Shown: in pieces, positions 4,293-60,813 of the stretch | How positions within the stretch are numbered: the first letter of the stretch is position 1 | Layout: every line of letters begins with the position of its first letter | Source of the DNA: Vicugna vicugna | Lineage: Eukaryota | Reading direction: 5' to 3' | NCBI GenBank assembly: GCA_013265495.1 | Contig: MU057560.1 | Location: forward strand, 2,418,909-2,482,908 | DNA: 64,000 nucleotides | Notes under the pieces: generated by a model | What the model was told of the DNA's origin: nothing | What the model saw: only the letters and a program-made list of their open reading frames with translations | Database searches by the model: none | Made by a program: the position numbers and the translations under genes

Positions 4293-5759
4293 ATCATCAG
4301 TGAATTTAGTAAAGTTGCAGGATTCAAAATTAGTATATAGTAATCTGTTTCATTTCTATACACTAGCAATGAACTATCAGAAAGAGAAATTAAAGAAACA
4401 ATCCCATTTACAATCACATCAAAAAGAATAAAATACCTAGGAATAAACCTACTTAAGGAGTAAGACCTTTGGTAACTATGACACCGATGAAAGAAATTGG
4501 AGCCAGCACAAACAGATGGAAAGATATACCATGTTCATGGATTGGAAGGAGTAATATGGTTAAAAGGTCCATACTGCTCAAGGCAATCTACATGTTCGTT
4601 AGGCTCCCTATCAAAATGTCAATGAGATTTTTCACAGAAATTAAACAAATAATCCTAAAATTTGTATGGAAACACAAAAGCCCCCAAATTGCGAAAGCAA
4701 TCTTGATAAAGAGCAAAACTGGAAGTCTCACAGACTTACAACTAAACTACAAAGCTACAGTAATCAAAACAGGATGGTACTGGCACAAAAGCAGACACAC
4801 AGATCAAAGAGACAGAGTAGAGAGCCCAGGAATGAATCCACATGCCTATCACCAACTAATCTACAGAAAAGGAGGAAAGAATATACAGTGGGGAAAAGAC
4901 AGGCTCTTCAAAAAATGGTGTTGGGAAAACTGGACAGCTCCATGCAAAAGAACTCATACCATGCACAAAAATAAACTCAAAGTAGATCAAAGACTTCAAT
5001 GTAAGACCTGAAACCATAACAATTCTGGAAGAAGACATACGCAGTACGATTTTGACATCAGTCTTAGCAGTATTTTGGGGGGTACATCTCCTCAGGCAAG
5101 GAAAACAAAAGCAAAGATAAACAAATGGGATCTAATCAAACCAGATAGCTTTTGCACAGTGAAGGAAACTGTCAACAAAACAAAAAGGCAGCCTACTGAA
5201 TGGGAGAAGATATTTGCAAACAATCTATGTGATAAGGGGTGAATATCCAAAATGTACAAAGAATTCGTTCAACTCAACACCAGAAATACAAAGAATGCAA
5301 TTAAAAGATGGGCAGAGAATCTGAACAGACATTTCTTCACAGAAGACACACAGATGGCCAAAGGTGCATGAAAAGACACTCAGCATCACTGGTCATCAGG
5401 GAAATGTAAACAAAGCCACGATGAGGTACCACCTACACCTGTCAGCATGGCTGCCATCAAAATGCAACACACAACAGGCGCCGTGAGGCTGTGAGGGGAA
5501 GGGAGCCGTCCTACAGTGTTGGCGGGAGTGTAGCCTGGCGCAGCCACTGTGGGAGACAGTGTGGGGATTCCTCAAAAAATTAGAAATAGAACTTCATACA
5601 ATCCAGAAATTCTATTTCTGGGTATTTATCCAAAGAAAATAAAACTAGTTAGAAGAGATACATGCCCTCCAGTGTTCCTAGCAGCATTATTTACAGTAGC
5701 CGAGATATGGAAGCAGCCTAAGTGTCCACCAATCAGTGCACACAGAAGATGTGAGATAG

Positions 5760-55743: not shown

Positions 55744-57003
55744 ATTTATTTTTATTTGATTTTCTTATTGAAAGACAGTTGATTCACAAGGTTGTGTTAG
55801 TTTCTGGGGTACCACACACTGATTCAGTTACACATATACAAATACATTTTCTTTTTCACATTCTTTTCCATTATAGGCTATTACAAAACACTGAATGCAA
55901 CTCCCTGTGCTGTACCGTAGGACCTTGTTGTTTATCTATTTTACATACAGTAGTTTGTATCTGCGAATCCCAAAGCGCCAATTTATCCCTTCCTCCCCCT
56001 GTCCCCTTTGGTGACAGTAAGTTTGTTTTCTCTGTCTGTGAGTCTGTTTCTGTTTGGTTTCTTTTTTTTTATGTTTGATCCTTTAATTTGTTTTTTTTTA
56101 ATTGCGGTATAGTCAGTTTACAATGCTGTGTCAGTTTCTAGTGCACAGCTTTGTGTTTCAGTCATACGTACACATACATACATTCGTTTTCATATTCTTC
56201 TTCATTATAGGTTACTGCAAGACATTGAACATAATTCCCTGTGCTGTACAGAAGAAACTTGTTGTTTATCTGGTTTTGTGAGGATTTTCTTGTATTTCCA
56301 AAGCAAGAGAGATTCTGCCACAGGTCGTTGGCTATTCCGTGTGAGCCGCTCAGTTTCAGAAGCATCTTTGATGTATTTGTGGGAGAGGGCGAGCCATGCA
56401 TCCTCCTCTGCAATCTTGGCAATCTCCCATTTCTGTTTTATAATTAAGTTCATCTGTATCATATTTTAGATTCCACATATAAGTCACATCATCTGTTTGT
56501 CTTTGTCTTTCTGACTTACTCAATTTAGAATGATAATCTTCAGGTTCATCCATGTTGCTGCAAATGGCATTATTTCATTCTTTTTTATGGCTGAGTGGTA
56601 TTTCATTGTATAACTATACCACAACTTCTTATCCAGTCATCTGTCAATGGACATTTAGGTTGTTTCCATGTCTTGGCTACCATAAATTGTGTTGCTATGA
56701 ACATTGGGGTGCAGGTGTCTTTTCGAATTAGAGTTTCCTCCAGGAGTGGGATTGCAGAGTCATAAGGTAAGTCTATTTTCAGTTTTTTAAGGAAACTCCA
56801 TACTGTTCTCCACAGTGGCTGCACCAATTTACATTCCCACCAGCAGTGCAGGAGGGTTCCCTTTTCTCCACAGCCTCTCCAGCATTTACTATTCGTAGAC
56901 TTTTGAATGATGGACACCCTCACTGGTGTGCAGTGACATCTCATTGTAGTTTTGATTTGTGTTTCTCTCATAATTAGTGACACTGAGCATCTTTTCATGT
57001 GCA
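55744..57003 (-). mobile_element. 5'-truncated L1 (ORF2 C-terminus + 3'UTR + tail), host of a nested insertion
   Basis: ORF 56603-57229 contains [26 protein letters not shown]...[35 protein letters not shown], the L1 ORF2 C-terminal Cys-rich domain. The 3'UTR runs to a T-rich tail at about 55744-55768 and is interrupted at 56056-56428. Confidence 0.95.
56056..56428 (-). mobile_element. Short bipartite L1-derived retroelement (L1 5' end fused to L1 3' end, A-tail, TSD)
   Basis: The minus strand begins GGGAGATTGCCAAGATTGCAGAGGAGG...CTCGCCCTCTCCCACAAATACATCAAAG (L1 5'-end-like), joins the L1 3'UTR at ..AAAACCAGATAAACAACAAG, and ends ATTAAAAAAAAA plus an A-rich tail. TSD GTTTCTGTTT (56046-56055) / ATTTCTGTTT (56429-56438). 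Confidence 0.8.
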
Positions 57004-60417: not shown

Positions 60418-60813
60418 CATCGTCATACTAAGTGAAATAAGCCAGAAAGAGAAGGAAAAATATCATATGATATCACTTATATGTGAAATCTAAAAAAAAT
60501 GACACAAATGAATGTATTTACAAAACAGAAACAAACTCACAGACATAGAAAACAAACTTATGGTGCTAGGGAGGAAGGGGGTTGGAGAGATAAATTCAGA
60601 GTTTTGGATTAGCAGGTACTAACCACTGTATATAAAACAGATAAAGAACAAGGTCCTACTGCACAGCACAGGGAACTATACTCAATACCTTGTAATAACC
60701 TATTATGAAAAAGAATATGAAAAGGAATCTATATGTAGAACTGAATCCCTATGCTGTCCACCAGAAACCAACACAACATTGTAAATCCACTATACTTCAA
60801 CAAAACAAAAAAC
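60418..60813 (+). mobile_element. Younger L1 3'UTR with A-tail
   Basis: TCATACTAAGTGAAATAAGCCAGAAAGAGAAGGAAAAATATCATATGATATCACTTATATGTG...CAGCACAGGGAACTATACTCAATACCTTGTAATAACC...CACAACATTGTAAATCCACTATACTTCAACAAAACAAAAAA. Confidence 0.92.

Follow-up and report, generated by a model that had tools for sequence, protein, structure and literature searches.

The window, the whole stretch of 64,000 nucleotides of Vicugna vicugna contig MU057560.1 that was analysed, contains on its minus strand an L1 element whose 3'UTR is interrupted by a second retrotransposed unit. This insert occupies positions 56046-56438 (390 bp). The older host L1 is present on both sides of it, with its ORF2 end and proximal 3'UTR at 56439-57002, running on past 57002, and its distal 3'UTR and 3' end at 55761-56045. 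The host 3'UTR reads through once the insert is removed: aligned to the full-length L1 copy L041, it reaches L041 position 6995 at window position 56430 and restarts from L041 position 6984 at window position 56058. The resulting overlap of about 11 nt reflects the target site duplication (TSD) of the insert, which is 10 bp long and 9/10 identical. Its 5' copy, AAACAGAAAT, lies at 56429-56438 (minus strand) and is preceded by TTAT on the element strand, while its 3' copy, AAACAGAAAC, lies at 56046-56055 (minus strand). Between the 3' copy and the body of the insert, a degenerate A-rich tail at 56056-56099 (minus strand) derives from poly(A). A further L1 3' end, at about 60419-60800 of the window, runs in the other direction and was recovered as reverse-strand matches of the host query; an earlier note on this DNA had used it as a comparison copy.

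The body of the insert consists of two parts, both read on the minus strand. The head, or 'exon 1' (56270-56428), opens with GGGAG at 56428 and closes with ...CACAAAACCAG at 56270. Its 159 nt correspond to the beginning of an L1 5'UTR, a segment about 165 nt long in less decayed copies; the head matches the 5' terminus of L1s of ~7 kb (L039-L049) and neither ORF2 nor the L1 3'UTR. A decayed YY1-like box, CCAAGATTGCAG, is found at 56408-56419, the family form being CCAAGATGGCGGAG. The tail, or 'exon 2' (56100-56269), comes from the end of an L1 3'UTR, of which it comprises ~170 nt, and is 78-84% identical to the 3' ends of full-length L1s. Head and tail meet at 56269..56270, where comparison with unspliced L1s places the joint CAG/ATAAAC between the end of the donor exon and the first base after an AG acceptor in the 3'UTR. 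A stop-free frame of 86 codons (window 56205-56465, minus strand) extends from the host L1 through the entire head; we take this frame in 5'UTR-derived sequence as a chance occurrence.

The origin of the head was established from 11 loci in which homology begins at the head and then runs on for at least 1.6 kb. When the sequences were extended to 8.4 kb, six of the 11 (L040, L041, L042, L044, L046 and L048) showed the head at about position 305 and an L1 3' end at about 6.8-7.4 kb, head and tail bracketing ~7 kb in these full-length L1s. Between them, L040 carries the Pfam domains Transposase_22 (ORF1), Exo_endo_phos and RVT_1 in this order, and L044 carries Tnp_22_dsRBD. The reading frames of these full-length L1s are all broken, which indicates that they are old, dead copies. 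In unspliced L1s and in the short units alike, homology starts at a G-run followed by CCAAGATGGCGGAG, an arrangement similar to the YY1 box with which human L1 opens. Such a box in human L1 is named in the legend of Figure 1 of Larson et al. 2018 (PMC5860796). About 750 nt past the L1 5' end, a 5'UTR block of ~300 bp differs among L039-L046, the alignments jumping from ~1045 to ~1350; this block is a 5'UTR length polymorphism among full-length copies.

Other origins of the head were considered. A coding exon of a cellular mRNA, to which a 52-codon open frame in the head could have pointed, was dropped since the head is L1 5'UTR. No tRNA was detected in the unit, and no Rfam family matched it at the gathering score, the lone match being CopA with an E-value of 0.77, which rules out a Pol III SINE head derived from tRNA, 7SL or 5S RNA. 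A template-switch chimera with a cellular RNA, of the U6/L1 type, was ruled out because the unit begins with the L1 5' terminus rather than with a non-L1 RNA. The earlier note, made from the sequence of the window, had proposed an insertion with TSD and A-rich tail within the 3'UTR of a host L1, composed of ~170 bp of plain L1 3'UTR distally and of ~157 bp proximally that were neither 3'UTR nor ORF2 and had the G-run and YY1-like site of an L1 5' end. The alignments to L041, to L1 3' ends and to the ~7-kb L1s bear out this description, including its coordinates. They also agree with its view that all coding sequence is missing, the 5'UTR being joined directly to the 3'UTR; the TSD and A-tail likewise uphold its proposal that the unit was retrotransposed whole, with L1 proteins needed in trans.

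We searched the 2.03-Gb assembly containing the window for other copies of this unit, hereafter called minis. A 194-nt query across the junction gave 39 non-self matches of 73-91% identity among the best 40 candidates; 30 of these matches span the junction and 9 end at it. At the genome level, the junction 24-mer was matched 224 times with at most 3 mismatches, against 4 times for a reversed control. Among the matches listed, the insert was recovered at 32 distinct loci, 29 of which are covered by a single gap-poor alignment running from about the first base of the head to just before the A-tail; the exceptions are L067, split in two, L060, which begins at query position 119, and L062, which ends at position 252. 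Most of these old-type (class-A) minis are complete at their 5' end, 27 of the 32 starting no more than ~10 nt into the head (query position ≤20). The flanks of mini copies are unrelated between loci. TSDs of at least 10 nt, anchored at the 5' boundary and allowing at most one mismatch, were found in 24/47 minis against 32/461 controls with mismatched flanks, and TSDs of at least 12 nt in 15/47 against 6/461. The mini sets leave out L060 (5'-truncated), L062 (3'-interrupted), L070 (holding N), L073 and L076 (interrupted tails) and L082 (a duplicate of L081); the loci were picked by a similarity search that scores the best 40 candidates, and the samples are accordingly non-random.

Exact words were then used to compare the numbers of minis and of unspliced L1s. 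The head of a younger subfamily, defined by a 17-mer, is carried by 53 minis, 46 unspliced copies and 1 other sequence (first 100 of the 194 matches listed, classified by eye). A 16-mer of the old head gave 39 matches in all, of which 28 are minis (the window copy included), 7 unspliced L1s and 4 unrelated sequences. A third head variant, with the donor CTG/GTAGGA, lacks both the CAG exon end and the GTAAG intron start; its 39 matches comprise 2 minis, 18-21 unspliced copies and about 16 unrelated sequences. The scarcity of minis with this variant fits a dependence on donor strength, within small numbers. Seen from the 3' side, 7 of 100 young-type 3'UTR words are mini junctions, 6 of them clear and 1 probable (first 100 of the 735 matches listed). 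Exact-word counts corrected for decay suggest, as a rough estimate, a total of several hundred to about a thousand minis. Word sampling in sequencing runs recovered 0.37-0.53 of the sampled words in runs under three organism labels, and at most 0.25 in RNA runs.

Unspliced L1s reveal what lies on either side of the joint before it is made. In those of the old subfamily, the head is followed by ...CTCACAAAACCAG/GTAGGAGAAA, i.e. CAG/GTAGGA. The GT of this old donor is kept in 5/11 unspliced copies, the other copies being single-base variants, and the donor pattern gave 1302 matches against 29 for the control. In a sample unconditioned on the donor and defined by the exact 17-mer of the young head, GT stands at the expected site in 42/46 unspliced copies (first 100 of 194 matches listed, by eye). 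On the other side, the tail is preceded in unspliced L1s by ...GATA(C/T)TAACTACTATATATAAAA(C/T)AG/ATAAACAACAAG. Here AG directly precedes ATAAAC in 70/93 ordinary L1 3'UTRs, a sample unconditioned on the acceptor (first 100 of 735 matches listed, by eye), and a branch-like (C/T)TAAC is found ~20 nt upstream of the acceptor in 7/8 unspliced L1s. The polypyrimidine tract of the acceptor, TACTATATATAAAATAG, is poor. The consensus sequences are MAG/GURAGU for the 5' splice site, yUnAy for the branch point and AG/ for the 3' splice site; the fit of the L1 sites was judged qualitatively against these sequences.

The younger subfamily provides a second, differently spelled example of the same joint. 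Its unspliced L1s read AAAATCCG/GTAAGAG (CCG/GTAAGA), with CpG-decayed exon ends CTG or CCA, and its minis read AAAATC(C/T)G/ATAAAC, with heads and tails matching their own subfamily; the young heads and young tails used here were taken from different loci (20 short pieces). A third type of junction is seen in L020, a copy with its own TSD, in which ~365 nt of 5'UTR ending in ...CAGAGG, after which unspliced L1s continue with GT, are joined to the usual ATAAAC acceptor. No second copy of this junction was detected, 0 of 39 non-self matches spanning it among the best 40 candidates of a search dominated by L1 tails. Four further internal deletions, found in L049 and L043, served as a control. 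They show microhomology and none is GT-AG; they were consequently rejected as further splice forms.

These data make it probable that the insert is a retrocopy of an L1 transcript spliced from the 5'UTR to the 3'UTR, re-made repeatedly and mobilised in trans. Three other explanations can be set against this reading. One is that a full-length L1 standing here lost its middle by a local DNA deletion, or that an L1 3' end was fused to a cellular mRNA, for which the open frame crossing the head of the window copy might speak. We consider it exceedingly improbable, since the insert sits within another L1 and is bounded by a TSD of its own, the same head-tail unit recurs at no fewer than 30 other loci and the head is L1 5'UTR. 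Alternatively, while target-primed reverse transcription of L1 RNA was under way, the L1 reverse transcriptase might repeatedly have switched at a microhomology hotspot, leaving the 3'UTR for the 5'UTR, or recombination might have had the same effect, without splicing. The earlier note had indeed read the junction as a deletion at AAAAC(C)AG microhomology. In the old subfamily this motif is present on both sides of the junction, and the old junction alone is also compatible with microhomology; the deletions of L049 and L043 attest that microhomology deletions occur in L1 copies of this genome. However, the two sides of the junction share only the terminal G in the young subfamily (ATCCG and AATAG) and the breakpoint is unchanged. 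As the exon end changes with the subfamily and has, in the young one, no more than this final G in common with the acceptor side, microhomology cannot explain a constant breakpoint. Moreover, all three junction types lie exactly before GT and after AG, L020 combines the common acceptor with a different donor, and the four control deletions do not obey GT-AG. The deletion proposed earlier is thus not supported, and a jump at microhomology appears quite improbable.

The third explanation is that one internal deletion gave rise to a founder mini-L1 with promoter and poly(A) end, which then propagated itself as a SINE-like lineage comparable to Bov-A or RIME. The hundreds of copies, most of them 5' full-length, the retention of ~165 nt of the 5' end, G-run and YY1-like box included, and a number of minis that matches or exceeds that of unspliced head-bearing L1s would all be expected of such a lineage. 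We compared the phylogenies of the two halves with this possibility. The old minis deviate from their majority-rule sequence by 12.0% on average (n=31) and the young ones by 7.9% (n=16), the two profiles being 86.8% identical; the window copy, at 15.2%, belongs to the older subfamily, and all sampled copies are old. In the head tree (75 rows), 16/16 young minis form one clade with 6 young unspliced L1s (100/98), and the old minis are interspersed among old unspliced L1s. In the tail tree (65 rows), 16/16 young minis group with 7/10 young-type L1 3' ends (91/89, not starred). Constraining the 47 minis to one clade costs 190.5 lnL units for the heads (AU test, p 2.6e-13), and a single mini clade costs 98.5 lnL units for the tails (p 5.5e-5); the hypothesis was stated before the trees were built, and the AU test was run after the head tree had been seen. 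A single mini lineage is rejected in both heads and tails. In addition, the heads and tails of minis share their subfamily with each other and with contemporaneous L1s, as does the junction variant of the young minis, and the breakpoints obey GT-AG. Terminal branches in the head tree are alike in length for minis and unspliced L1s, giving no sign of a later burst restricted to minis. A single founder is therefore unlikely, and self-propagation may come as an addition to recurrent splicing. The earlier note had regarded the insert as one copy of an L1-derived family. Its expectation of many dispersed copies with the same junction and different TSDs was confirmed in this genome, and the family does number hundreds of copies, but the single, Bov-A-like lineage it had in mind is not supported, the minis not forming one clade. 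Judged from the trees and the joints, the minis appear to have arisen at least twice from L1 RNA, each time with an identical joint.

According to the splicing model, the internal promoter of a full-length L1 (~7 kb, of which the 5'UTR takes up about 1.3 kb or more) would yield a transcript with a splice donor some 165 nt downstream of its start and an acceptor some 180 nt short of the poly(A) site. Joining the two would drop both ORFs, together with what remains of the 5'UTR and most of the 3'UTR, as a 6.7-kb 'intron'. The product would be a capped, polyadenylated, non-coding RNA of ~340 nt. ORF1p and ORF2p made from other L1 RNAs would bind this RNA, and target-primed reverse transcription at endonuclease-type nicks would yield full-length mini copies with TSDs and A-tails. 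The process would have recurred in at least two successive L1 subfamilies, the older about 12% and the younger about 8% diverged. That the spliceosome made the joint, that mobilisation occurred in trans and that most copies are first-generation is what we infer from the sequences. Seen in this way, the mini 'family' would be mainly a recurrently re-made product, an extreme, coding-free form of the spliced L1 retrocopies known in humans. Retrotransposition of spliced human L1 RNAs is described by Larson et al. (PMC5860796).

The near-complete 5' ends of the minis are in keeping with the shortness of their presumed RNA, as nearly every copy would reach the 5' end. Most copies of a 7-kb L1, in contrast, are 5'-truncated, and this difference inflates the ratio of minis to unspliced L1s. 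With no coding sequence left, minis must depend entirely on proteins supplied in trans, and trans-complementation is weak in human cell assays. The ratios of 53:46 and 28:7, together with the 7% of 3' ends, are hard to square with such weak trans-complementation. Either the spliced RNA was very abundant, or the minis may also have fired from their retained promoter; the star-like phylogeny of the 165+180 nt is compatible with both. If our reading is true, the L1 proteins served a non-coding L1 RNA in trans far above the rate that cis-preference would allow, or the minis transcribe themselves; cis-preference is described for human L1 (PMC5860796). More tentatively, splicing could time and again have given rise to a hyperparasite of L1 that is coding-free, driven by Pol II, self-transcribed and in competition for ORF2p in trans. 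Such an element would keep the 3' end and the initial ~165 nt of the promoter, and could supply at least half of the head-bearing copies of a subfamily. We regard this hyperparasite reading, like self-amplification of the minis in general, as possible and rather doubtful.

The closest known counterparts of the minis are the SpIREs, the spliced integrated retrotransposed elements of human L1, on which Belancio et al. reportedly did earlier work in 2006 and 2008. As described by Larson et al. (PMC5860796), SpIREs resemble minis in having an internal gap bounded by a 5'UTR GT donor and an AG acceptor, TSDs and A-tails, and in their repeated origin across L1 subfamilies, new splice patterns following the evolution of the 5'UTR. 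In the minis, the gap is bounded by GT and AG, TSDs, A-tails and an endonuclease-like site are present, and the joint is found at many loci and in more than one subfamily. The two differ in the position of the acceptor, which in the human elements described there lies in the 5'UTR or ORF1, so that ORF2 is kept (PMC5860796), whereas that of the minis lies in the 3'UTR ~180 nt before the 3' end and leaves no ORF. They also differ in abundance: the same source puts SpIREs at about 2% of human full-length L1s (PMC5860796), and they are regarded as dead ends, while minis make up 53/99 or 28/35 of the sampled head-bearing copies. Minis are best classed as a coding-free, high-copy kind of SpIRE, set apart from the described human classes by the placement of the acceptor.

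RIME, derived from ingi in Trypanosoma brucei, and likewise NARTc, derived from L1Tc, join two LINE ends without the central coding part, as minis do, and RIME has a copy number similar to that of its parent (PMC2323293). RIME is treated as a self-propagating deletion derivative, whereas the joint of the minis fits splice sites and is re-made from successive L1 subfamilies; the host and the LINE clade differ as well. Of the properties of a LINE deletion derivative, minis have the ends joined without coding sequence and lack a single founder clade. Bov-A, the short non-autonomous unit derived from the ruminant RTE element BovB, is LINE-derived like the minis, but belongs to the RTE clade and not to L1. 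Its copies are considered to form one lineage, which subsequently acquired tRNA heads by fusion, and we know of no splice-site origin proposed for it. HAL1 (half-L1) is a non-autonomous L1 derivative with repeated origin in mammals; it keeps ORF1, whereas the minis (~340 bp) keep no ORF. Classical SINEs are short, dispersed and reliant on L1 proteins, with an A-tail and L1-type TSDs, all as in minis, but their head is a Pol III head derived from tRNA, 7SL or 5S RNA, in contrast to the L1 Pol II 5'UTR of the minis. Our literature search found no description of L1 retrocopies spliced from 5'UTR to 3'UTR, nor of such a family in camelids or other artiodactyls. The unit may already be catalogued in Dfam or Repbase, and in standard repeat annotation minis would probably appear as two abutting L1 fragments.

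In an L1 lineage of a non-human mammal, a splice from 5'UTR to 3'UTR would thus have produced several hundred coding-free copies that rival the unspliced 5'-intact elements. If this is true, splicing gives a LINE a means, already at hand, of generating a short non-autonomous partner, and counts of 'full-length' or 5'-intact L1s based on 5'UTR matches are inflated in such genomes. Should the hyperparasite reading also hold, minis would be the mammalian counterpart of RIME/ingi, born by splicing.

Several observations on individual copies were made in the course of the searches. L049 (G000:C10921:2927200-2935720) and L043 (G000:C5010:5429600-5438100) share an ORF2 restart point, at oriented positions ~1346 and ~3198, respectively; it corresponds to L041 position ~4916-4918 (...TCACATGATCATCTCAATAG), while the upstream breakpoints differ and lack GT-AG. 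This common restart may be a recurrent breakpoint, a template-switch hotspot or a feature of the subfamily. One young mini occurs twice, ~9.5 kb apart, as L081 and L082 (G000:C2064:753834-754737 and 763379-764282), and the identical flanks indicate a segmental duplication rather than two insertions. The minis L070 (G000:C562:28430-29330) and L076 (G000:C5880:107169-108069) have near-identical downstream flanks and lie on two small contigs, one with a run of N; this pair is probably due to assembly redundancy or haplotigs. Finally, two mini junction words are found 290 bp apart (G000:C11790:6346823 and 6347113) and two unspliced donor words 377 bp apart (G000:C3401:2925283 and 2925660), which suggests local tandem duplications of a mini and of the start of an L1 5'UTR.
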